A stretch of DNA of 12,832 nt, from the NCBI RefSeq assembly GCF_006345805.1, contig NW_021826418.1:1-12832 (forward strand), in the 5' to 3' direction. This DNA is from Octopus sinensis. Lineage: Eukaryota. Both the position numbers and the translations under genes were made by a program. Positions 1-12,832 of the stretch are shown piece by piece; position 1 is the first letter of the stretch; each line of letters begins with the position of its first letter. Under the pieces are notes generated by a model, which saw nothing but the letters and a program-made list of their open reading frames with translations, searched no databases and was not told where the DNA came from.

Positions 1-14
1 TAATAATAATAATA

Positions 15-96
<82 letters not shown>

Positions 97-114
97 GTAA
101 TAATAATAATAATA
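1..114. repeat. (TAA)n microsatellite
   Basis: Near-perfect TAA repeats from the window start up to the SINE 5' end. Confidence 0.98.
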
Positions 115-490
115 GGCGTAGGAGTGGCTGTGTGGTAAGTAGCTTGGTTACCAACCACATGGTTCCGGATTCAGTCCCACAGAGTGGCACCTTAGGCAAG
201 TGTTTTCTATAGCCTTTGCCCGACCAAAGCATTGTTAGTGGATTTGGTAGACGGAAACTGAAAGAAGCCCGTTGTATATATATACATGTATGTGTATATG
301 TTTGTGTGCCTGTGTTTGTCCCCCAACATCGCTTGACAACCGATGCTGGTGTGTATACGTCCCCGTAACGTAGCAGTTCGGCAAAAGAAACCGATAGAAT
401 GGGGTCGATTTGCTCGACTAAAGGCGGTGCTCCAGCACGGCCACAGTGAAATGACTGAAACAAGTAAAAGAGTGAAAAGAATAAAGAGAG
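115..490 (+). mobile_element. tRNA-derived SINE, family A (octopus-type, CORE-like centre), near full length
   Basis: tRNA-like head with A box (TGGCTGTGTGG) and degenerate B box (GGATTCAGTCCC), CORE-like CACCTTAGGCAAGTG, internal (TA)n and an AAAGAGT-type tail. A reverse-complement copy lies at 1264-1639 and a 3' fragment at 12142-12335. Confidence 0.9.
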
Positions 491-537
491 TAATAATAAT
501 AATAATAACAATAATAATAATAATAATAATAATAATG

Positions 538-581
<44 letters not shown>

Positions 582-599
582 GATGAGATGATAATAATG

Positions 600-643
<44 letters not shown>

Positions 644-865
644 TATATAATTATGATGATGATGATATAATATAATAATATAATAATAATATAATAAAAA
701 AATAATAATAATAATAATAATAGTAATAATAATAAAATTAATAATAATAATTATAATAATAATAATTTATAATGATGATGATGATAATAATAATAATAAT
801 AATAATAATAATATAATAATAATAATAATGATAATAATAATATGATATAATTAAATGATGATATG

Positions 866-897
<32 letters not shown>

Positions 898-915
898 ATA
901 ATAATAATAATAACA
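491..915. repeat. Imperfect (TAA)n/(TGA)n microsatellite
   Basis: Long, interrupted TAA array; source of the poly-I/poly-Y ORFs. Confidence 0.97.
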
Positions 916-1260
916 ACAACAACAGCAACAAAATAGTAATAGTATCGACAACAACAGTAAGAAGAACAAGCGTTTTCTAGTGTAACCACTTCAACACAAG
1001 CAGGAGCAAATGATAATTGCGTGCCACTACCAACCACTGAAATACCATAAGCAACAACAACAACAACGACGACTGCAATACCAACAATAGCAACAACAAC
1101 AGCTGCAGTTCCTAAAACAGATGTAGTAGCAACAACAAATAGAACTGCAACAATATGACCATCAGCAACCTACAGCCACGATACCAACAAAAAATGCGGA
1201 TCCAACAACCGTCGGTGTACCCAGTTACAACTGCAACTGGGGTACTGCTATCGTCGCCAC
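916..1260. repeat. Decayed (CAA)n-derived low-complexity region
   Basis: Scattered CAACAACAA/GCAACAAC motifs with a strong A+C strand bias. Confidence 0.6.
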
Positions 1261-1263
1261 CAC

Positions 1264-1639
1264 TCTCTCTTTACTCTTTACTCTTTACTCTCTTACTTGT
1301 TTCAGTCATTTGACTGCGGCCATGCTGGAGCACCGCCTTTTAGTCGAGCAACTCGACCCTGGGACTTATTCTTTTGTAAGCCCAGTACTTATTCTATCGG
1401 TCTCGTTTGTCGAATCGGTTGTCAAGCAATACTAGGGGGACAAACATATTCACACACATACATATATATATATATACGACGGGCTTCTTTCAGTTTCCGT
1501 CTACCAAATCCACTCACAAGGCTTTGGTCGGCCCGAGGCTATAGTAGAAGACACTTGCCCAAGATGCCACGCAGTGAGACTGAACCCGGATCCATGTGGC
1601 TGGTAAGCAAGCTACTTACCACACAGCCACTCCTGCGCC
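1264..1639 (-). mobile_element. tRNA-derived SINE, family A, near full length
   Basis: Reverse complement of 115-490. On the minus strand the head reads GGCGCAGGAGTGGCTGTGTGGTAAGTAGCTTGC with B box GGGTTCAGTCTC; the tail reads (CTCTTTA)n on the plus strand. Confidence 0.92.
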
Positions 1640-1670
1640 ACCACCAACAATAACAACAACGATAACAGCA

Positions 1671-1899
1671 ACATAAGGCCAGCAATTTGGGGTGAGTATG
1701 TGTGTGTGGAGGGACAAGGGGTAAGCCGATTACATCGTCCTCTAGTGGATCTAGTGGCACTTATTTTATCGATCCCCCGATAGGATGAAATGCAAAACGG
1801 ATCTCGGCGGAATTCGAACTCAGAGACCTAAAGACGCACGAAATGTTCGCTCAGCACTTTTGCCCGGCGTGCTAACGATTCTGCCAGTTCACTGTCTTA
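1671..1899 (-). mobile_element. tRNA-derived SINE, family B (Nin/Deu-domain-like), diverged
   Basis: Aligns by eye to 3626-3828 and 11204-11419: GGCAGAATCGTTAGCACGCCGGGC head, GAGTTCGAATTCC B box, TTTCATCCT...GATCGATAAAATAAGTGCCA central domain. Confidence 0.85.
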
Positions 1900-1930
1900 A
1901 TCATCATCATCATCATCGTCATCATCATCG

Positions 1931-1967
<37 letters not shown>

Positions 1968-2037
1968 TATCACCACCACCACCACCACCACCACCATCAT
2001 CATCATCAATCATCATCACCACCATCGTCAGCATCAC

Positions 2038-2072
<35 letters not shown>

Positions 2073-2079
2073 AGAACAC

Positions 2080-2120
<41 letters not shown>

Positions 2121-2142
2121 CCATCATCATCAACACCATCAC

Positions 2143-2175
<33 letters not shown>
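1900..2175. repeat. (CAT)n/(CAC)n compound microsatellite
   Basis: Direct reading; source of the poly-H, poly-S, poly-D and poly-M ORFs. Confidence 0.98.
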
Positions 2176-2399
2176 TGACAGTTGCAATAAGCTCAGCTCT
2201 TGTAATTATTCTCACACGTTCCACTTTGGGCCACGACAAAGAAACAATGCTGTTAGTGTACAGTTTATATATTACAACTGACATGGATTGTATCAGTTCC
2301 CACCTGAGTCAACAATATCTTTACAACTACCCATAACACAAAGAAAAAAATAATAATAATAAATAAACAGAAAACAAAACACATGCTCACTTGTTCCGC

Positions 2400-2492
2400 T
2401 TCTTTACTTCCTGAGTTCAAATCCCGCTGAAGCCAACTCTGCCTTCTATCCTAGCGGGTCCGATGAAATAAAATAGCAGCCCAGAGCAGTGA
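2400..2492 (+). mobile_element. SINE family B internal fragment
   Basis: CTGAGTTCAAATCCCGCTGAAG...GCCTTCTATCCT...GGGTCCGATGAAATAAAAT matches the B-box and central part of 11204-11419. Confidence 0.65.
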
Positions 2493-2530
2493 ACTGGTTT
2501 CATTGTTATAATATTGGGCAAAATGATGTA

Positions 2531-2671
2531 TTAGGTTGTCCCAAAAGTTCGTAAACACTTGCGAAAATTGAATTTTTACTCGCCAAGTACTAACAAAAAC
2601 AACAAAAATTATTCCTCGAAATAAAGACCATTATTTTCCAAGACTTTCTACGAACTTTTGGGACAACCTTA
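2531..2671. mobile_element. Tc1/mariner-type MITE, 141 bp
   Basis: 23-bp terminal inverted repeats TTAGGTTGTCCCAAAAGTTCGTA (2531-2553) and 2649-2671, 22/23 matching. Flanked by TA at 2529-2530 and 2672-2673. The TIR start resembles Hsmar1/MADE1 (TTAGGTTGGTGCAAAAGT). Confidence 0.9.
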
Positions 2672-2974
2672 TATTTGTGTCTGTCCCGGATCTTTGCATT
2701 TTCAGATTGTACAGAAACAGCAAATAGCACAAGACGTTTTGTCCGATGCTCTACTGATTCTGGCAATCTTATTATCCTCCTATTGTTAAATTTTCAATTA
2801 TCGTCATTTATAAGAATCTCGTAAAATCTTCACTAAACCTCGTTGAAGTTGAAACAAACTGCTTTAGATTCTTTTACCGTATTTTGTGTTGTGTTATCTG
2901 TCTGACCTCTTAAATGACGAAAGAAATATTTTCAAAAGGAGAATGAAACTTATTCAAAAACAAGGAGTTCTTAC

Positions 2975-3029
2975 CTTGACATGTGAAAACCCGATCTCGT
3001 TGCCGTAGTTGTATTCCAGGACAAAGAGC
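2975..3029 (-). CDS. Candidate 55-nt internal exon, unknown gene
   Basis: On the minus strand, acceptor TTTTCCAG| and strong donor AAG|GTAAGA bracket unique sequence. All three frames are open; the frame LFVLEYNYGNEIGFSHVK has mostly G/C-ending codons in an AT-rich context. Protein not recognised. Confidence 0.4.
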
Positions 3030-3139
3030 CTGGAAAACTGCACAGTTGCAGTTTTAAACTATCCCCAAATACCCAAGAACGTATATTCTGTACCTTGAAG
3101 AATCTCTAGATTACCATCTTGGAAATGTTATTCTTCCCA

Positions 3140-3623
3140 CTCAGCCCTTTATGTTAGAAGCATTTTCATCTCCAAGCGAGTAGAAACCCTCACGACACTC
3201 CAAAACACCAGCCCCAAATTTTCTTCATAGGGATTCTTGTATAGTGATTCTAGAGCACACACATTCAGTTCCTAATGTTAGAAGCATGATCATCCCCAAA
3301 CAAGCAGAAACATTCCCTACACTTACCCCTCAAAAAACTAGCCCCAAGCACAACTACTTTCAAACTACTTTAAGCTTATTGCTTCTCATATTCAGTTCCC
3401 GGATCAAAATGCATATTCACTCGTAAGCATAACCATCTCCAAATAATAAGAAACATCCATAACACCCCAGAATGCAACCCTCAAACTATCCTAAGCATAC
3501 TTTCCTGTCACAACGTGCACTCTCAGTCCATAATCTTAAGAAAAGAAGACGGAAGTTCATCTCATAATAAGCAGGAATATTTACGACACCCTTGAACACT
3601 ACAGCAAAACTACCCAAAATATT
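3140..3623. repeat. Highly degenerate tandem repeat, ~124-143 bp period, at least 4 units
   Basis: A block of the form (ATGTTAG)AAGCAT..CATCTCCAAA.AAGCAGAAAC..ACAC recurs with its CAT anchor at 3167, 3291, 3434 and 3558. Confidence 0.7.
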
Positions 3624-3625
3624 AC

Positions 3626-3828
3626 GTTCAAATTTTGATACACGATCAGCAATTTCAGGTTGAGTCGATTACATCGACCTCAGTGCTTGACTGGTACTTT
3701 ATTTATCGACCCCGAAAGAATGAAAGGTAAAGTCGACCTCGGCGGAATTTGAACTCAGAACATAAAGACGGACGAAATGCCGCTAAGCATTTAACCCGGC
3801 GTGTTAACGGTTCTGCCAGCTCACCGCA
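3626..3828 (-). mobile_element. tRNA-derived SINE, family B (Nin/Deu-domain-like), full length
   Basis: Minus strand reads GCGGTGAGCTGGCAGAACCGTTAAC...GAGTTCAAATTCCGCCGAGGTCGACTTTACCTTTCATTCTTTCGGGGTCGATAAATAAAGTACCAG. Degenerate flanking direct repeat at 3605-3623 and 3832-3851. Confidence 0.9.
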
Positions 3829-4142
3829 TTACAAGACTACCTCAAAATATTGTTGCTCACATGTAGTTCTTGCTACAATATGCACAATTATAGGCTGACA
3901 GCAACACCCGCAATACTCCAGAACATTCTAAAAACAACAAAACTAATGATGTCACAGTAGTTCAATTAGCCCCAAATACAATATTGAGACGTCACGCTCC
4001 AGCTTTACTTTGTCCTCATCCACTGTGACCACCCCCTCAGAATTTAAGTGTGTACATAAATACATAAATAAACAAGGCATATAAATAACAGTTTCTGACT
4101 TAGGTACAAGGTCAGGTGAAAAGCCATGACGGTGTCCTTTAC

Positions 4143-4273
4143 CTGGTTGCAAAGATCAGCTAAAATTGTTAGGAAATGAGGCAAAAACTTCGGCAAATGA
4201 AACATAGAACCTCTCCAACTTGTATCATTCCAACACTGTTGCCATTGATATTCTTTCAAGAAACACGTAAACA
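4143..4273 (-). other. Candidate 131-nt exon (or 17-nt micro-exon 4143-4159)
   Basis: Minus-strand polypyrimidine acceptor TTTCTTGTTTTGCATTTTGCAG| and donor CAG|GTAAAG. One open frame (FTCFLKEYQWQQCWND...LADLCNQ). An inner acceptor ATTTTAG| also exists. Confidence 0.3.
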
Positions 4274-4370
4274 CTGCAAAATGCAAAACAAGAAACACGG
4301 AATATGACATCTTTGTTTTCGCCTGTTCTACGCGAGGATTGGCCTTCTTAGTCATAAACATCATCAACAT

Positions 4371-5040
4371 GGAGGAACTAGGAATGTTATTTTTGTCCTG
4401 AGAATAATAGCGGGGCGGGCGGTGGAGATGCAAAACGATGTCCTCATGTGTTTCATAGATTGCACAAAGGCCTTCGACAAAGTATGATATAAAATGTTAT
4501 TTGAAGAATTTAGTAAACTTGATCCTCTTGGGGAAGACCCCCGAATCTTGCAGAGCCTGTATTGGAACTAATCAGCATGCATAAGGGTGGATGGAGAATG
4601 CAGTGAATGCACTAGCATCAGGAGAGGGGTCAGGCAAGAATGTGTTATGTCATCAGATGTCTTCAATTACTATACCGAATCGATCACAAGAGAACTGGAA
4701 AGGGGGAAAAAAGGTCTAAGAGTAGGAGGCAGAAATATCACAAACATAAGATATGCAGATAACGCTCTCTTACTTGCAGAATCGAAAAGGGGACGTCAGA
4801 AAGCTCTGGATGTAGTGATCAGAGAAAGTGAGAGGAAGGGTCTGTTCATAAATTGCCAGAAGACAGAGTGTATAGTGGTGACAAAGAAGAGAAGTCCAAA
4901 ATGCATGCTGAAAGAGAACAATCAAATCATTAAGCAGCTAGCATCCTCCGACCACTTTGGAACTTTGATCACAGAAGACACAAAATGTGTGAAGAACATG
5001 GAAAGACGAATAGCGTTGGAAACATCTGCTTTCTCAAAAT
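4371..5040 (+). pseudogene. RTE-clade non-LTR retrotransposon reverse transcriptase fragment
   Basis: A single frame reads GTRNVIFVLRII...MCFIDCTKAFDKV...LQSLYWN...IRRGVRQECVMS...FNYY...ITNIRYADN...GLFINCQKT...FGTLITED...RRIALETSAFSK, i.e. RTE/BovB-like RT motifs. In-frame stops at 4485 and 4569; catalytic YADD changed to YADN. Confidence 0.93.
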
Positions 5041-5072
5041 ATGGCTACATAGCCGTTGGTTTTCTGTATATC

Positions 5073-5136
5073 GGTGGAAGGGAAATTTTCTGATGAGGCG
5101 CAGAACGCTGAAATCCCGTGATACAACAGTTCCGCT
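5073..5136 (+). ncRNA. Candidate type I hammerhead ribozyme
   Basis: CUGAUGA 5090-5096; stem II GGCG/CGCU with CAGAA loop; GAAA 5110-5113; stem III AUC/GAU with CCGU loop; AUA triplet ending at 5123. Stem I is imperfect: proximal U.C mismatch, UU/AA, then GGAA/UUCC or GGUGGAA/UUCCGCU. Confidence 0.6.
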
Positions 5137-5192
5137 CCTGGTGCTGGACATTTCTCGCCTGATATCGATGGCATTGTACTTTTATGCACTGG

Positions 5193-5225
5193 ATGCGTAT
5201 ACGAGAGACTTTCTCGTATATGCAT
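5193..5225 (+). other. 14-bp stem-loop
   Basis: ATGCGTATACGAGA-GACTT-TCTCGTATATGCAT; fully paired as plus-strand RNA with one G.U. Confidence 0.75.
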
Positions 5226-5758
5226 GTCTCGTGTTGCTTTATTACGGCGCTCCTATAACACAGCCACGTTAATTAGGCTACAAAGGTTGTCATTCGGTAT
5301 TAATGCTACCATTGTCGTTAATATCTAATATCTATCTATCGGAAGAGATCGAATTCTTCTTTCCTAACCTAATCGCCACCTCTAAAAAATTCAAGCGAAA
5401 AACCTAAGACCCTATACACCTAGCAAAGGCTCGATCTACCACGCAAGATCTTCGGTTGTAAAGCACACAGCAACATCGTCTTCTAGTGCCAACCACATCG
5501 CACGTAATACTGTAGTTTCTATGCTTAACGAATCTTCCTTGCCATCCCCTCCCTGCCACCTGGTTCGAAATGCGAACCGCGAGCTACCACGCCCAACCGC
5601 ACTACTGTCGACATCATTCCGCACTCCAACGTCTCCTCTCCAACATGTTATGATTACTTGACACACTTAGCTAACGGCTAAGGAACTGCCCTCTGAACGG
5701 GAATTGTGTAAAGAAAAATGTCGTTCACAAGTGCAATGTCGAGACGCATAACACCCTG

Positions 5759-5794
5759 ATATATATTTAATATATATATATATATATATATATC

Positions 5795-5830
<36 letters not shown>

Positions 5831-5981
5831 ATTTAATTAATAGTAAAAGTATATACATACAGGCGTTCATATATATGTGTATATATGTTTATGTATATCT
5901 GTCAATCTATATATCTATCTATCTATATATACATATATACGTACATATTTGTGTGTGTATCAATATACATGTATGTATATA
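5759..5981. repeat. (TA)n / TA-TG-rich microsatellite
   Basis: Direct reading. Confidence 0.95.
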
Positions 5982-6080
5982 TGATAAAGATGATAAAGGT
6001 GATAATCACTTTGATAAGATGAAAGTGGTGGTAGATGTGGTGGTGTTGGGGTAGTGATGGTGTGATGAGAAAGACGACGA

Positions 6081-6086
6081 AGATGG

Positions 6087-6123
<37 letters not shown>

Positions 6124-6157
6124 AATGATGATGATGATGATCATCATCATCATCATT
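6081..6157. repeat. (GAT)n joined to its reverse complement (CAT)n
   Basis: GAT repeats switch to CAT repeats at 6140/6141, forming a short palindrome. Confidence 0.9.
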
Positions 6158-6259
6158 ATCGGCTGGTTAATCATCGTGGCGGTGGTGGCGACGAAGATGA
6201 AATATATAAAATAATAATAATTACACTAAGAACAAACGAATTCCTCTAAAGTTGTGTGC

Positions 6260-6505
6260 TGACAGGAAGTGAAATAAACCCGAGTAAACCGAAATGTTGC
6301 GCTGGTGGCGCCACATAAACGGGTGGGTAGGTAGGTAGGTGGGTGGTTGGGTGAGGGTCAGGAGAACTACCCCTTCCACCATGCCCCCCCCATCCCTGCC
6401 GCCGTGTAACACCCTCCTCCTCTCCCCGCCCCCTCCGTTTTCTTCCTTGCTGGAAATGGCGAGTGTAAGTCACCGGCGCCAACACGTGTAATTGTTGACG
6501 CCGGT
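6260..6505 (+). promoter_or_regulatory. GC/CpG-rich promoter- or enhancer-like island with possible first exon
   Basis: ETS-type ACAGGAAGTG 6262-6271; partial CTCF-like GCGCTGGTGGCGCC ~6299-6312; GC box CCCCGCCCCC 6424-6433; YY1/start-type AAATGGCG with ATG at 6456; donor GTAAGT 6465-6470; E-box CACGTG 6483-6488. Confidence 0.5.
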
Positions 6506-6539
6506 TTTGTTGTTGTTTTGGGTCAGGATTACGATGACG

Positions 6540-6565
6540 GTGGTAGTAGTGGTGGTGGTGGTGGT

Positions 6566-6596
<31 letters not shown>

Positions 6597-6670
6597 GGAC
6601 GCTGGTGATATTGTAGAAGATGGTAGTGATGATGATGCTGTGCTGATGGCAGTGATGATGGTGGTGGTGA
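6540..6670. repeat. (GGT)n/(GAT)n microsatellite
   Basis: Direct reading; source of the poly-H and poly-P ORFs on the minus strand. Confidence 0.9.
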
Positions 6671-6847
6671 TCAAAGAGGAAAAATAAATAAATAAAAAAG
6701 AAGTTATTTTTGACATTTTTCTGCGAGTACTTTTTGTTTTTTTTTGTTTTGTTTTGTATTTTGTTTTTGTTCCATATTGTACCCGCCCCACAATATATAT
6801 TCTTACATATATACAGGCACGCATACTTGCATACACACTCACATTTC

Positions 6848-6858
6848 ATATATATATG

Positions 6859-6891
<33 letters not shown>

Positions 6892-6950
6892 TTCATATAC
6901 ATATATATATCTATATACATATGTATGTATATAGATATGTATATATACTA

Positions 6951-6981
<31 letters not shown>

Positions 6982-7054
6982 AGTGTGTGTGTACGTATAG
7001 ATGTATAAGTAATAGTATACTATGTATATATATATGCACGTGTATATATGTATG

Positions 7055-7100
<46 letters not shown>

Positions 7101-7200
7101 GCATGTATACATATGTATATATGTGCATGTATTCATGTATGTATATATATATATAGTATATTACTGTTTATGCACATGTATGTTAGCACACACACACACG
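6848..7200. repeat. (TA)n/(TG)n/(CA)n compound microsatellite
   Basis: Direct reading; source of the IY-repeat ORFs. Confidence 0.96.
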
Positions 7201-7654
7201 CACGCCCCCCCCCACACATATGCAAACGCGTGCTCGTAGATTCACGTACCCACATAGCCATAATTAAAGAAGATGTGTTATTATGTAATGTACGATATGG
7301 TAGTAACCACCATACAGATTAATTCAAACCTCGTTAAACTCCGAATACTCAACTGCATTCTGAATAGGGTATAAACAAGAGGAAATTGGATTCAGGCTAT
7401 TACGACGTGGGTGCTGAAATGTACCTAGTTTTAAGGGTTTCGCGAAAAGCCTGCTCGGAGGCCCAAACTTTCGAGTTCTTTTACAAGACTTAGAAAAAAC
7501 CGAAGGACCGTAGCAATAAGTATGTGAATCTGAGAGGGGCATATGCTGGATATAATCATAATTAACAGATCCTCCTGCGTTTTCTTTTATTTAAAGCCAG
7601 GAACATTTCAGGAGACCCTCTTACGAAGAAGAGCCTCGTATAAAGTTGAAGTAA

Positions 7655-7792
7655 GTAGCTCTCCGTCTGTCACAATGGCGAGTATTCCAGATCACCGGAA
7701 CAGCTCACTCGTGAGATTAACATGCAAATGCTGGAGCACTCCACAGACACGCGTAACTTGAAAGTAGTTCTTAGGGAAATTCAGCGTTGACG
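7655..7792 (-). mobile_element. SINE family C 3' fragment
   Basis: AACAGCTCACTCGTGAGATTAACATGCAAATG...TCCACAGACACGCG...TTCTTAGGGAAATTCAGC aligns to 10345-10435. Confidence 0.8.
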
Positions 7793-7914
7793 TCATCCAA
7801 GAAAATAAATCAATTATTATTCGGTTCCTTCCATGATTGTTTCATCGGTCTCATTGAAAATTTTACATATTTTAAAAATTTAATCTTATTATTTTCCTTA
7901 AAAGTTTAAGTTTA

Positions 7915-7937
7915 TCAATCAATCAATCAATCAATCA

Positions 7938-8019
<82 letters not shown>

Positions 8020-8024
8020 TTATC

Positions 8025-8098
<74 letters not shown>

Positions 8099-8119
8099 TT
8101 ATTTATCTATCTATCTATC
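7915..8119. repeat. (TCAA)n followed by (TCTA)n (GATA-type) microsatellite
   Basis: Direct reading; ends exactly at the 5' truncation point of the LINE. Confidence 0.98.
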
Positions 8120-9513
8120 CCTAAAAGGTCGGGTGGAGGTGGTGAACACGTACATCGCGTCCATCATCTACAACAGCCTGACCGTCGTGCCTTGTCCCGA
8201 CCCTACCATCACCAAACTAGAACGCATTCACTTCCTTTTTCTTGTGGAAATGATGCGTTCCGATGGTCAGGCGATCCATTTGCTGTCAACACCCGTTAAA
8301 AGGAGGACTGGGCATGCCGTGGTTGATGATGCGCAGACACGCGCTGAGACTGCGACATTTCCGGCTCTACGTAGACGACGGTGAACAGGTGTGGTTGCAG
8401 TTTGTGAGGCACGCGTTCCCGCAGCTCGTCTCCATGACCGAACTGCAGTCGTGGATCAAAGCGAGGCCGAGGAAGGGCGAATGGCACCGCGACTGTCGCG
8501 TTGCTCTCAAGCAACTATGCCGTCCCGAGTCGACCTTGAGCGACTTCAACACAACCAAAGCATTCTATAGAGGATTAGTGGAGGGGAGGTACGACGACGA
8601 TCTCGGGGCGAATCTGGGCGTCGACGAAGAATACCTGACTCGCCTGTTCAAGGCAGGACCTATGAACAACTTCCAGAGATCCCTGGCCTGGCAGTGCTTT
8701 CGAGAAGCGCTACCCGTTCGGGATAAGCTCTACAGACATGGCTCGAGAAACACGGGGCCAACCTGTCCGAGATGCTGTCAGAACGACGAAACCGCCCTGC
8801 ACGCACTCGTGCAGTGTTCAACCATTTCCGACCTGTGGGCCTAAGTCGAATGACTGCTATCGCGTGTGGGACGAGTTGGTTTATCAGCCGAGTCTATCAT
8901 CGATATTGTCGCGCTTCCTTCTTTGAAACGGGAAGGAAGGAAAAGCCATTTTCATCGAAAGTGGCTATGGCGAAAGAATGTATCTGGTGGACGCGTCTGA
9001 AAGGATTAGAGACAACCACTTTTCTCTCTGGTCAATCTCTCATCAACTTCTTCAAGTATCACTTGAAGAGGAAGGTGAGAGTAGAGAGGGAAGTTTTGTC
9101 TAGTGAATGTTTCAAAAAACGATGGGTGAATGTAGCAAGGATGGCACGTGTGAATGATGGAGCCAGCTTGAGCATAATCCTATGAACCAAAAGAAAAAAA
9201 AGAACGAAAGGAAAAAAGAGAGCCACTTACTGTAATGCGTTTTCTTTTTGCATAACACTATTGCCCAAGGCTCCCGTAGTCTTTCCAGTATGCTTTTTTG
9301 TCCACGGACAAACCTAATCTGTTTTCTCTTTTTACATTGACATTTCTGTGATATACGATCCCTATTGATCGGCCCTACTTTTTTTTTCATGATTTCTTTT
9401 AATCGGAATTCTCCCCATTTTTTCCCGATCCCTTTTGATTGGAATTCCCAAAAAGAAAAGCTCTGCTTTGTATTTTGTGCTTCTGTGTTTAGCCCTGCGT
9501 GGCCAATAAAGAA

Positions 9514-9514
<1 letters not shown>
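8120..9514 (+). mobile_element. 5'-truncated L1/Tx1-clade non-LTR retrotransposon (ORF2 C-terminus plus 3' UTR), inactive
   Basis: Post-RT motifs LKGRVEVVNTYIAS..., FLWK and GGLGMP; zf-RVT-type region LAWQCFREALPVRDKL...CPRC...ETALHALVQC; then AKECIWWTR. Split by two frameshifts (~8240, ~8940-8960) and stops at 8842 and 8851. ORF ends at 9185; T-rich 3' UTR; AATAAA at 9505-9510. Confidence 0.92.
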
Positions 9515-9572
<58 letters not shown>

Positions 9573-9601
9573 CATCCATCCATTCATCCATCCATCCATC
9601 C

Positions 9602-9669
<68 letters not shown>

Positions 9670-9760
9670 CTATCTCTCTCTCTCTATCTATCTATCTATT
9701 TATTTATCTATCTTTCTTTCTCTCTTTCTATCTATTACTCTTTCTTTCTCTCTCTCTCTT
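9515..9760. repeat. (TCTA)n/(TCCA)n/(TC)n microsatellite
   Basis: Direct reading; starts 4 nt after the LINE's AATAAA. Confidence 0.97.
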
Positions 9761-9838
9761 TCTTGCTATATATATATATTCTCATACTCCTATATATGCA
9801 TAAACTCATACACAAATATAATATGCTTCTGCGCGTGT

Positions 9839-9958
9839 GTGAAGCTACGTGGCCTAGTGATTAGGGTCTCCGACTCTTGATCGAAAATCCACGGTTTCGA
9901 TTCCTGGACAGGACAGTTTCTTTTTAATCCTTTAGCAACACACATTATTTTACGATGT
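9839..9958 (+). mobile_element. SINE family C 5' fragment (tRNA head plus start of CORE-like region)
   Basis: A box TGGCCTAGTGA and B box GTTTCGATTCC; diverged reverse complement of 10500-10617. Confidence 0.75.
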
Positions 9959-10169
9959 ACCCGTTTATCTCTTTCTTTCTTTCTTTCTTTCTTTCTCACC
10001 CTCTCTTTCTCTTTCTCTCTCTCACGCTAGATGTCATCCTCCATATTCCATGTGGCGAAGGGAGCATGTACATTTTCTCACATCTTAGGTATCGAAAACA
10101 GAGAGGAAAACATAACACATGTCACCAAGTCACACTTACTACTTGTGAGTGGCGATTGGCTCTACTGGA

Positions 10170-10172
<3 letters not shown>

Positions 10173-10208
<36 letters not shown>
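10173..10208. repeat. (TG)n microsatellite
   Basis: Direct reading. Confidence 0.97.
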
Positions 10209-10210
<2 letters not shown>

Positions 10211-10299
10211 GTGTGTTTATGTCTCTGATAGGGACCAGTGTGAATTGACGACCTCGAACTGAAATACGTTCTGGTATTAGTAAAACACCAGAACTGCAC

Positions 10300-10617
10300 G
10301 CAGTCGTTTACGACATGGAGGGTTCCTGTCGGTACGATCAACAAAACAGCTAGCTCGTGAAAGTAGCGTGCAAGTGGTTGAGGAAATCCACAGACACGCG
10401 AACCCTTAGCGCAATTCTCAGGGAGATTAAGCTGGACACAGAATTCATCAAGGCTAGCCCTTTTAAATACTGCTACAGCTAATATTTGCCAGCTGTATAG
10501 ATTGGAGCAACATCAAATAAAGTATTTTGTTCAAGGTCACAACGAACCACCGGGAATCGAACGCATGACCTTACAATTGTGGGCCGAAAACCCTAACCAG
10601 TAAGCCACGCGTCTTCT
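10300..10617 (-). mobile_element. tRNA-derived CORE-like SINE, family C
   Basis: Minus-strand head GAAGACGCGTGGCTTACTGGTTAGGG, B box CGTTCGATTCCC, CORE-like GTGACCTTGAACAAAATACTTTA; partial copies at 7655-7792 and 9839-9958. Confidence 0.87.
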
Positions 10618-10792
10618 TGTATTCATATTGACTGAGCTATAATCTCCCCTTACGTCAATCTTTATTTCGTATTTCGTATCTTACGCGAAACGTTTAAATA
10701 ATATATTTAAGGCAGCGTACCGTGATTTAAGGAGTAGACGCTTTTAAAAGGACGACCAACGGATGAAAAAAGTGCATCCCACTATAACTGTT

Positions 10793-11092
10793 TTGGTTGT
10801 TTGTTGCTTCTTAAGCAATGCCTGGCTCATTAGGGCCGGTTTCCCGGTTTCCTTGGCGTATAGGTTCCCCACATGGACGGGATGCCGGTCCGTCGCAGGT
10901 GAGCTGCAAGATGCAGCAGGAAAGAGTGAGAGAGAAAGTTGTGGCGAAAGAGTCAGCAGAAGTTCACCATTACCTTCTGCCAGAGCTGCGTGGAGCTTAG
11001 GTGTTTCGCTCATAAACACACACATCGCCCGGTCTGAGATTCGAACTCGCGATCACTCGACCGCTCCTCTAACCACTAGGCCATGTGCCTCT
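10793..11092 (-). mobile_element. tRNA-derived SINE, family D
   Basis: Minus-strand head GAGGCACATGGCCTAGTGGTTAGAG (A box) and GAGTTCGAATCTC (B box), ~250-nt unique body and a CAACAAACAACC-type tail. Confidence 0.8.
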
Positions 11093-11203
11093 ATCACTAT
11101 AATTAATGCAAGTAATTAAAGTCTTTCTAAATAAATACTATAATGGTTGTTCAGCACGTTGTTATATGTTATTAATTCATAAATCCATTTGCGGAAGTAA
11201 TTG

Positions 11204-11419
11204 AGTCGGCAAGCTTGTAGAATCGTTAGCATGGCAGGCGAAATGCTTGGCAGTATTTCGTCCGTCTTTTTATGTTCTGAGCTCAAATTCTGCCGAGGTC
11301 AAGTTCGTCTTTCTTCCTTTGTGGGTTGATAAAATAAGTACCAGCTGAGCACTGGGGTCGATGTAATCGATTAGCTCTCCTTCCAGCGAACTTGCTGGCC
11401 TTGTGCTAAAATTTGAAAC
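11204..11419 (+). mobile_element. tRNA-derived SINE, family B (Nin/Deu-domain-like), full length
   Basis: Reverse complement of 3626-3828, including CTTTCTTCCTTTGTGGGTTGATAAAATAAGTACCAG and the 3' end GCTGGCCTTGTGCTAAAATTTGAAAC. Confidence 0.9.
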
Positions 11420-11448
11420 TATTTACTGATGTAATAGCTATGTAAGTA

Positions 11449-11580
11449 CAGGCATACCTCAACTTACGTCATTTCAAGTTATGTCTTTCGAATTACGTCG
11501 TCATTTAAAGAAATTGATAGTAAAAATAAACTCATCTTCAGTTTGTTTATCTGACTTCACGTCGGTCTTAGCGGACATAT
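11449..11580. mobile_element. pogo/Tigger-like DNA transposon terminus (single end)
   Basis: TA|CAGGCATACCTC matches the Tigger1 TIR start; it is followed by repeated subterminal motifs ACTTACGTC, AGTTATGTC, AATTACGTC. No partner TIR seen in the window; the right boundary is approximate. Confidence 0.6.
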
Positions 11581-11660
11581 TTAAATGCAAGAAAAAAAAA
11601 ACCCAGCTATATACCATTATTTACATTCAACGGATATTTGTCCTCATCTTGTTTGTTGTT

Positions 11661-11706
11661 AACATAACGTTTCGGCTGATATACCCTCCTGCTTTCTTCA
11701 GGTGTC
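11661..11706 (-). ncRNA. Minimal type I hammerhead ribozyme motif (degenerate), left arm
   Basis: Minus strand GACAC-CUGAAGA-A-AGCAG-GAGGGUAUAU-CAGCC-GAAA-CGUU-AUGUU, with mismatches in stems I and II. Confidence 0.7.
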
Positions 11707-11769
11707 TTGGGGAAATTTCGAACCTGGGTTCTCCTTCCAAAGATATTTTTTGATGTTGCTGTTGTGTTA

Positions 11770-11850
<81 letters not shown>

Positions 11851-11924
11851 CATCATCATCATCATTATTATTACATCGAAAAATACCTTAGGAATGAGAA
11901 CCCAGGTTCGAAATTTCCCCCCAG

Positions 11925-11970
11925 AAAACCTGACGAAAGCTGGAGGGTATATCAGCCGAAACGTTGTGTT
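11925..11970 (+). ncRNA. Minimal type I hammerhead ribozyme motif (degenerate), right arm
   Basis: AAAAC-CUGACGA-A-AGCUG-GAGGGUAUAU-CAGCC-GAAA-CGUU-GUGUU; stem II GCUG/CAGC, palindromic loopless stem III ACGU, predicted cut after 11965. Confidence 0.75.
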
Positions 11971-12141
11971 AATAACGAACAAGATGAGGACAAATTACCG
12001 TCAAATGTAAATAATGTAAATAATGTACATAATTCCTCATCTCTTAAATATAGAGCTATATACCTATGCCAAAGTGGAAAAATCAAACAAAATACACGTA
12101 AAAAAATATGGGTAAAATATATAATAACAAATATTCTTTTA

Positions 12142-12335
12142 TTCTTTTACTTGTTTCAGTCATTTGACTGCGGCTATGCTGGAGCACCGCCTTGAAGTGG
12201 TGTTGGGGGTGGTATAGTCGAACAAATCGACCTCAATATTTATTTCTGAATCCTAGTATTTATTCTGTCGGTGCCTTTTGCTGAACCGCTATATTACTTG
12301 GAATTAAACATGACAACACCAGTTGTCCAACGATG
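12142..12335 (-). mobile_element. SINE family A 3' half
   Basis: TTACTTGTTTCAGTCATTTGACTGCGGCTATGCTGGAGCACCGCCTT is nearly identical to 1293-1339; more diverged downstream. Confidence 0.88.
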
Positions 12336-12362
12336 ATATATATATATATATATATATATATA

Positions 12363-12649
12363 AATGGATGAATGAATTATCCTTTATTTACCGTTAACAT
12401 AGAAAATTCAATAAACAGTTACCAGGGTAGCAAAATTCACTCAAGTAACACGGATGAAGCGACCCATTCAAAGGTAGAAACTCCGGGTTAATGTCTAGTA
12501 ATTTGTGTAGTATAAGTAAATAAATGAAGTTGAACGAAGATGTTATTAAAATTCTTTTACTTTCGATATATGTTTCGAAGACAACATTGGTTTTATTCCA
12601 AAGGAATAAACGGTGTAAAATGCAAACTTCTCATCAGGAAAGAAAGTAA

Positions 12650-12651
<2 letters not shown>
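12363..12651 (-). mobile_element. Probable fragment of a second hammerhead-bearing (Penelope-like) repeat
   Basis: Unique ~290-bp block bounded on both sides by (TA)n and containing a Penelope-style hammerhead; element class inferred from the ribozyme architecture only. Confidence 0.5.

Positions 12652-12652
<1 letters not shown>
12553..12652 (-). ncRNA. Type I hammerhead ribozyme with extended stem II
   Basis: Minus strand CUUUC-CUGAUGA(12637-12631)-GAAG-46 nt-CUUC-GAAA(12576-12573)-CAUAUAUC-GAAAG. Stem I CUUUC/GAAAG, stem II GAAG/CUUC capped by UUUAUUCC/GGAAUAAA, near-palindromic stem III ACAUAUAU, AUC triplet. Confidence 0.8.

Positions 12653-12720
<68 letters not shown>
12652..12720. repeat. 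(TA)n microsatellite
   Basis: Direct reading. Confidence 0.98.
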
Positions 12721-12723
<3 letters not shown>

Positions 12724-12832
12724 TAAATACTAGGTAGTGGGTAGCGATTTTCTTCACTACTTAAAGGGAGTGACGGCCCTGCCTGACACGAGTCCCGGGC
12801 TCACCTGGCTCCGGCTACAGTACCCGGTATGG

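Follow-up and report, generated by a model that had tools for sequence, protein, structure and literature searches.

Results

The locus

We analyzed a window of 12,832 nucleotides from Octopus sinensis (NCBI RefSeq assembly GCF_006345805.1, contig NW_021826418.1, positions 1 to 12,832 of the forward strand). At 5041-5329 it holds what we identify as a 5'-truncated, diverged copy of a ~346-nt repeat unit that carries a type I hammerhead motif (Table 1). Immediately upstream lies a reverse transcriptase (RT) fragment, which we assign to a broken internal piece of a LINE (putatively RTE-like) that is separate from the hammerhead element.

Table 1. Coordinates of the hammerhead-bearing repeat copy and the adjoining LINE fragment in the window. 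R1 is the covariance model described in the text.
Feature	Position	Strand	Evidence
LINE RT fragment, internal, broken, endonuclease+RT type	4374..5040	+	Pfam RVT_1, protein alignment, 11 copies
Repeat unit 5' remnant (~unit 36-82), upstream of the ribozyme	5041..5086	+	Copy alignments, blastn
Site of ~31-nt deletion relative to the family	5086..5087	.	16 pairwise alignments and multiple alignments; codes B, C and D
Core box CUGAUGA (C3-A9)	5090..5096	+	Letters, R1
Stem II hairpin, GGCG/CGCU (5097-5100/5106-5109), 4 bp with one G.U, loop CAGAA	5097..5109	+	Letters, MFE fold, R1
Core GAAA (G12, A13, A14, A15.1)	5110..5113	+	Letters, R1
Stem III, 3 bp (A-U, U-A, C-G; 5113-5115 with 5120-5122), loop CCGU; U16.1 = U5122	5113..5122	+	Letters, family alignment
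H17 (A, non-G), predicted cleavage after this position	5123	+	Position relative to core
Proximal stem I 3' strand CAACAG; partner CUGUUG deleted here	5124..5129	+	Family pairing, R1
Distal stem I 3' strand UCCGCUC	5131..5137	+	Family pairing; same layout in HH9
Remaining unit to 3' end AATATCTAAT	5138..5329	+	blastn, unit-end counts
ATCT-type simple repeat right behind the unit	5330..5339	+	Letters

Several other features lie in the window. An open frame at 8254-8844 (+) matches Pfam zf-RVT (PF13966, E 4.8e-8) and is a fragment of a second retroelement. At 11615-12016, an inverted repeat (arms 11615-11756 and 11873-12016, 88-92% complementary) surrounds an (ATT)n/(ATC)n microsatellite. Each arm contains a hammerhead-like string (CUGACGA ... 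GAAAC GUU) with a stem II junction that looks non-canonical; the arms gave no Rfam match at E<=10 and no R1 match. A dispersed repeat of ~170 nt occurs at 3660-3830, 11204-11420, 1713-1900 and 2404-2479, and also flanks the LINE loci L043, L045, L049 and L052. It includes a tRNA-T-arm-like string, and ARAGORN calls no tRNA in it. Finally, an AT-rich microsatellite tract at 5900-7250, where GC falls to 0.11-0.33 in parts, draws numerous spurious miRNA matches below threshold (mir-297, mir-3149 and others).

The hammerhead motif in the window

The initial annotation described a type I hammerhead at 5073-5136, and its letters are present as described: the core, stems II and III, A5123, the stem I mismatch and the distal pairing. 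The motif also lies, as stated there, about 30 nt past the end of RT homology, which stops at ~5040-5047. All conserved positions of the type I core (C3 U4 G5 A6 N7 G8 A9, G12 A13 A14, A15.1-U16.1, H17) are found in the window copy. Its three helices are unequal. Stems II and III are complete (4/4 and 3/3 pairs), while proximal stem I retains 2 of 6 pairs, so the plan of closed stems II and III with an open stem I is incomplete here. The position next to the core (1.1/2.1) is a U5089.C5124 mismatch, and only two A-U pairs adjoin it (5088/5125 and 5087/5126). Farther out, 5073-5079 can pair with 5130-5136 over 7 bp, two G.U pairs included.

The bare sequence pattern is not rare by chance: when the window was shuffled 200 times with dinucleotide content preserved, 23 of the shuffles contained it at least once. 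A chance motif was considered and is ruled out by homology to the repeat family described below.

We found little to support the proposal that this copy could fold as a monomer. The Rfam hammerhead models, which had been suggested as a check, gave no match in the whole window at the gathering threshold or at E<=10, nor at E<=10 on 5040-5170 (131 bases). The minimum free energy (MFE) fold of 5073-5136 keeps the stem II hairpin and the 7-bp outer pairing and is missing stem III, and it is no more stable than shuffled sequences (z -0.11). These results, together with the loss of four of the six family stem I pairs, argue against the proposal.

A dispersed family of hammerhead-bearing repeats

The motif had been called an orphan, but it belongs to a repeat family. 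We searched the window's own genome (2.7 Gb in 13,516 contigs). The query 5040-5170 found nine other places, 76-84% alike, all of which start at window 5087-5090 and match window 5087-5169. When flanks were added, likeness to other copies spanned ~5049 to ~5330, and in blastn the segment 5049-5088 matches one of these copies, L003. A better-kept copy used as query returned 45 matches, 66-89% alike (76 candidates, 40 of them scored). Overall, the genome contains at least 45 matches to the repeat unit, 61-89% alike, and all copy numbers here are minimum counts. Exact degenerate versions of the ribozyme sequence match only 2 and 6 places, which makes them unfit as a copy count; this scarcity indicates that the family is made up of old, decayed copies.

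The unit is 346 nt long, as defined on locus L010, where two units stand head to tail. Window 5041-5086 corresponds to unit ~36-82, and 5087-5329 to unit 112-346 (68% identity, blastn). In the L010 unit the hammerhead occupies ~96-170. The ribozyme therefore does not mark the start of an element, as had been proposed: the fragment begins near 5041, and the hammerhead sits ~100-170 nt into the unit. The window copy ends at the family's usual 3' end and runs into a short ATCT repeat. Other copies carry (AAT)n, (AC)n or (TG)n tails after their 3' ends, and several adjoin simple repeats.

How are the units arranged? Among 32 distinct loci (~3 kb each), 9 contain partial head-to-tail tandems, 7 contain adjacent inverted pieces and 18 are solo, with 2 showing both tandem and inverted arrangements. 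Unit starts are spread over positions 1-287, whereas 22 of 53 pieces end at 343-346. No array of more than two units was seen in these 32 loci.

Part of this picture recalls a classical SINE, in which a pol III head and a LINE-type tail would flank a passenger hammerhead and a linear RNA would be copied. The defined 3' end, often followed by simple repeats, the variable 5' truncation and the 18 solo loci all agree with such an origin. However, no tRNA, 5S or 7SL match occurs inside the units at E<=1 (Rfam, 20 loci), ARAGORN finds nothing in the window, and partial tandems or inverted adjacent pieces, present in 14 of the 32 loci, are atypical of SINEs. We consider a SINE origin unlikely and favor a retrozyme-like repeat.

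Two loci hold further sequences of note. L008:1764-1982 (+) is a diverged subfamily copy that stands head to head with another and has a different hammerhead stem II (CUGAUGA AACA...); it hints that the family is wider than our searches sampled. L006:317-434 (-) is a 5S rRNA match above the Rfam cut-off (70.9 bits) that lies ~1 kb from the unit and is apparently unrelated to it.

The hammerhead plan across family copies

We aligned 28 copies, leaving out the window copy. The initial annotation had predicted that the family consensus would have G at the position of 5089, and this proved correct: 22 of the 28 copies have G, 5 have A and 1 has T. In the majority sequence, CUGUUG precedes the core and CAACAG follows the cleavage site, which together make a 6-bp proximal stem I. 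A small internal loop separates it from a possible distal helix of 7 bp. The stem III region reads UCAYRUGA, a near-palindrome, in most copies. In this structure, 77.7% of cells form standard pairs, compared with 17.7-55.4% when the partners are slid, although the structure was derived from the very sequences on which it was scored. Stem III is paired in 92.9% of cells, proximal stem I in 83.3%, stem II in 77.7% and the distal helix in 65.6%. The core is complete, with all 11 bases, in 13 of 28 copies. Under loose criteria, 7 of 28 also keep at least 5/6 pairs of proximal stem I, at least 3/4 of stem II, 3/3 of stem III and a non-G H17. The best-preserved copies include L020:1517-1627 (-), L022:1516-1624 (-), L002:200-312 (-) and L006:1455-1565 (+).

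The suggested check of covariation on genomic copies gave no signal above shuffles. Across the 28 copies, covariation beyond column make-up is absent: of 500 shuffles, 272 are at least as well paired as the real alignment, and 288 score at least as high for covariation. Moreover, RNAalifold predicts zero pairs on the 28-copy alignment. An absence of covariation is expected of neutrally decaying copies. Even so, support for the structure comes down to how well the majority sequence matches the hammerhead plan. MFE folding did not recover the hammerhead fold for the window copy or for four others, with z-scores from -2.51 to +1.56.

Rfam offers a weak outside check on the family structure. At E<=1, 16 of 20 loci have no match to an Rfam hammerhead model. 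The remaining 4 match the full HH9 model at 22.7-28.3 bits, against a gathering cut-off of 52.

The adjoining LINE fragment

The frame at 4572-5093 matches Pfam RVT_1 (E 1.3e-8). A search for RT homologues found five long relatives, all named just 'hypothetical protein'. Residues 658-880 of a 1044-aa endonuclease and RT relative align to window 4371-5039, and the first 657 and last 164 residues are absent. Eleven other copies of the LINE align over window 4371-5047; ten of these alignments end at 5037-5047 and one ends at 5011. Past the equivalent of 5040, the other copies go on to share a further 250-510 nt, none of which is in the window.

Why does a hammerhead unit stand directly behind an RT? 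If the unit were the natural 3' untranslated part of the LINE, its position directly behind the RT homology on the same strand would be explained. Three observations make this reading close to untenable. The shared LINE sequence of the other copies continues where the unit begins in the window, the protein alignment shows that 164 residues of the open reading frame are missing before the unit starts, and none of the 11 other LINE copies has the unit within ~1.2-1.5 kb. The converse comparison gives the same result. When the LINE protein was compared with 32 unit loci, it adjoined the unit only in the window; L005 and L019 contain RT pieces hundreds of bases away. Since LINE and unit adjoin in only 1 of 32 loci, the joint is a one-off, and the link that the initial annotation drew between the ribozyme and an RTE-like RT appears to be accidental.

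The joint arose either by nested insertion followed by loss of the LINE tail or, less likely, by a template switch. Under the second scenario, the RT fragment and the unit would be one chimeric retrocopy: the RT would have begun copying from the 3' terminus of the unit RNA, switched at unit ~36 onto the LINE's own mRNA and stopped ~670 nt later, which would make the LINE the mobilizer. Both pieces are on the + strand and abut at 5040/5041, and the unit is 5'-truncated at this joint. In addition, the sequence for the LINE's last ~164 residues (~500 nt) is nowhere in the window, unlike what a simple nested insertion would leave. A later deletion accounts for the absent tail equally well, however, and the uniqueness of the joint in both surveys above also counts against a chimera. 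The unit and the LINE have no 3'-tail similarity, and no convincing target-site duplication was seen by eye around 4374 and 5339. If true, a chimera would mean that an RTE-like LINE RT had been caught copying a hammerhead retrozyme RNA and that a LINE, rather than a Penelope-like element, mobilizes animal retrozymes. We regard both the chimera and its proposed course as quite unlikely, and prefer nested insertion with subsequent loss of the LINE tail.

Damage and age of the window copy

To compare the window copy with its relatives, we used R1, a covariance model based on the 28 aligned copies, from which the window copy was excluded. R1 finds 5074-5140 at 46.8 bits (E 1.8e-12), with the next best hit in the window at 11.2 bits, and flags 4 of the 6 proximal stem I pairs of the window copy as non-standard. 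The reason is a deletion. In multiple alignments, ~31 nt are missing between 5086 and 5087 relative to the family; aligned pairwise with 16 copies, the window copy shows one gap of 29-35 nt against 9 of them, one of 20-26 nt against 5, and a split gap against the other 2. The deleted piece comprises the 5' strand of the distal stem I helix and most of that of the proximal one, and this deletion is why stem I is reduced to two of its six proximal pairs.

The two A-U pairs next to the core are the remains of pairs 1.2/2.2 and 1.3/2.3. In contrast, the distal helix that the initial annotation built with 5073-5079 is not that of the family, whose partner differs: 5073-5079 comes from farther upstream in the unit, and its complementarity to 5130-5136 is fortuitous. 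With the stem I 5' strand lost, the window copy is likely unable to self-cleave, and we infer that it cannot form the active fold.

Contigs from sequencing runs labelled as other organisms, which we designate by codes, cover the same locus. Those of codes B and C align gap-free over 4859-5500 with 3 differences (642 nt), and that of code D spans 4833-5197 with 14 differences (365 nt) and no inserted bases at 5086. The code E contig covers the locus only from 5110 onward. Because codes B, C and D carry the same junction, the RT/unit joint and the deletion predate the split of at least these labels.

Could the copy nevertheless be active, or domesticated, as a monomeric ribozyme in which 5073-5079/5130-5136 replaces the lost stem I? 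All 11 core bases, an A at H17 and stems II and III are intact, the MFE fold of 5073-5136 includes the 7-bp outer pairing, and the stretch is kept in several related organisms. The chance pairing might even hold a weak stem I together. Yet only two A-U pairs are left by the core, next to a U.C mismatch at 1.1/2.1; Rfam is silent at E<=10; and the fold, which is missing stem III, is no better than shuffles. In the related organisms, motif and flanks are conserved to about the same degree, as the difference counts above show. This similar conservation gives no sign of selection and fits recent common descent. An active or domesticated ribozyme is thus very unlikely, and the earlier suggestion of domestication finds no support in a copy that has lost its stem I 5' strand and shows the same junction under three other organism labels. 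The window copy would instead be a neutral relic with no present function.

Candidate Penelope-like elements in the same genome

The genome is rich in candidate Penelope-like elements. A search for the GIY-YIG endonuclease gave 5029 candidates; of 150 that were scored, 147 matched, with frames of up to 883 aa. Many of these loci, for example L067 and L068, share identical scores and contain open frames of 781-883 aa, which points to Penelope-like elements that are young and possibly intact. As a weak test of a shared ribozyme, R1 was run on 30 of the 5029 loci with ~1.5 kb on each side. It gave no significant hit, the best reaching 15.4 bits (E 0.1), and thus no sequence link from the unit to a Penelope-like element in this sample. 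No RNA runs holding the stretch are listed, which is no evidence either way.

Discussion

Our results are most readily explained by a dead relic: the window copy would descend from a Penelope-style, non-LTR retrozyme-like hammerhead repeat, has suffered a ~31-nt deletion and is likely unable to self-cleave. On the strength of the sequence comparisons, we hold this reading to be highly probable. The unit shares with non-LTR retrozymes a type I hammerhead in a non-coding repeat of ~170-400 nt (346 nt on L010). It also shows the insertion pattern of a Penelope-like derivative, since 5' truncation, partial tandems (9 of 32 loci) and adjacent inverted 5'-truncated copies (7 of 32) are all present.

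The initial annotation had proposed an undescribed retrozyme-like element. The retrozyme-like part stands, on account of the type I hammerhead in a ~346-nt unit that occurs solo, in partial tandem and inverted. The novelty does not, because the kind has been published (PMC7229834; bioRxiv 10.64898/2026.07.22.740005). At most, the family adds one more member to a known kind of element, and it may already be catalogued. Non-LTR retrozymes bear type I hammerheads inside animal repeats of 170-400 nt (PMC7229834). Penelope-like elements and their non-autonomous forms are described as frequently truncated at the 5' end, partly tandem, found beside inverted 5'-truncated copies and biased toward microsatellites (PMC8557442). 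Moreover, a recent preprint argues that animal retrozymes derive from Penelope pseudo-LTRs (bioRxiv 10.64898/2026.07.22.740005).

How might such a family have spread? By analogy, it would be a non-autonomous, non-LTR retrozyme-like retroelement. The hammerhead would cleave its transcripts after H17, and the reverse transcriptase of a retroelement would turn the RNA back into DNA. The most likely source of this enzyme may be a Penelope-like element, which is favored because of the variable 5' truncation, the partial head-to-tail tandems and the adjacent inverted 5'-truncated pieces. A stem III this short (3 bp), closed by a near-palindromic loop, may have made the ribozyme more effective in dimeric form. 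Dimer action, with a short stem III, has been published for amphibian retrozymes (PMC7229834).

The window copy itself matters little, as it appears to be a dead copy of an element kind already described across animals. The family is of more interest. It combines an HH9-like, full-size hammerhead with a Penelope-style arrangement and fits the recent proposal that retrozymes originate from Penelope-like elements. In addition, the persistence of a complete-looking core in a ribozyme that is minus a helix is a caution for motif-based scans.

Comparison with known systems

One of the closest known systems is Rfam RF02275 Hammerhead_HH9, an intronic ribozyme of amniotes. The best-kept copies align to it over its full length and have the same layout: a 6-bp proximal stem I, an internal loop and a distal helix, followed by a 4-bp stem II with an A-rich loop and a 3-bp stem III. 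Unlike HH9, the family is a dispersed repeat rather than a single conserved intronic locus, and its copies score 22.7-28.3 bits, well short of 52. The family is therefore an HH9 look-alike and not a member.

Type I hammerheads also reside on short dispersed or satellite repeats in schistosomes (Sm-alpha) and newts (satellite 2). The family shares with both a type I hammerhead borne on a short repeat.

The Penelope hammerheads published so far are mostly minimal variants, whereas the family's hammerhead has a long stem I with an internal loop. Unlike Penelope-like derivatives, the unit's hammerhead has no sequence match in the 30 GIY-YIG loci that were sampled. In other respects the resemblance to Penelope pseudo-LTRs and non-autonomous derivatives is close: they show the same 5' truncation, partial tandems and inverted 5'-truncated copies, likewise end by simple repeats and have a hammerhead in the repeated part (PMC8557442; PMC4209133).

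The family differs from non-LTR retrozymes in the lack of arrays longer than two units among the ~3-kb loci surveyed, its low copy number, the age of its copies (61-89% alike) and the broken state of the window copy. Published retrozymes typically form tandem arrays. Both kinds of repeat nevertheless occur as monomers and as head-to-tail copies, with Penelope-like elements in the same genome. Overall, the animal non-LTR retrozymes presented in two studies (Cervera & de la Pena 2020, PMC7229834; Li, Clavereau & Pollet 2026, bioRxiv 10.64898/2026.07.22.740005) have the same type I hammerhead in a short non-coding repeat. The repeat lengths given in the first of these, 170-400 nt for retrozymes in general and 350-390 nt in mussel, lie close to the ~346 nt found here (PMC7229834).
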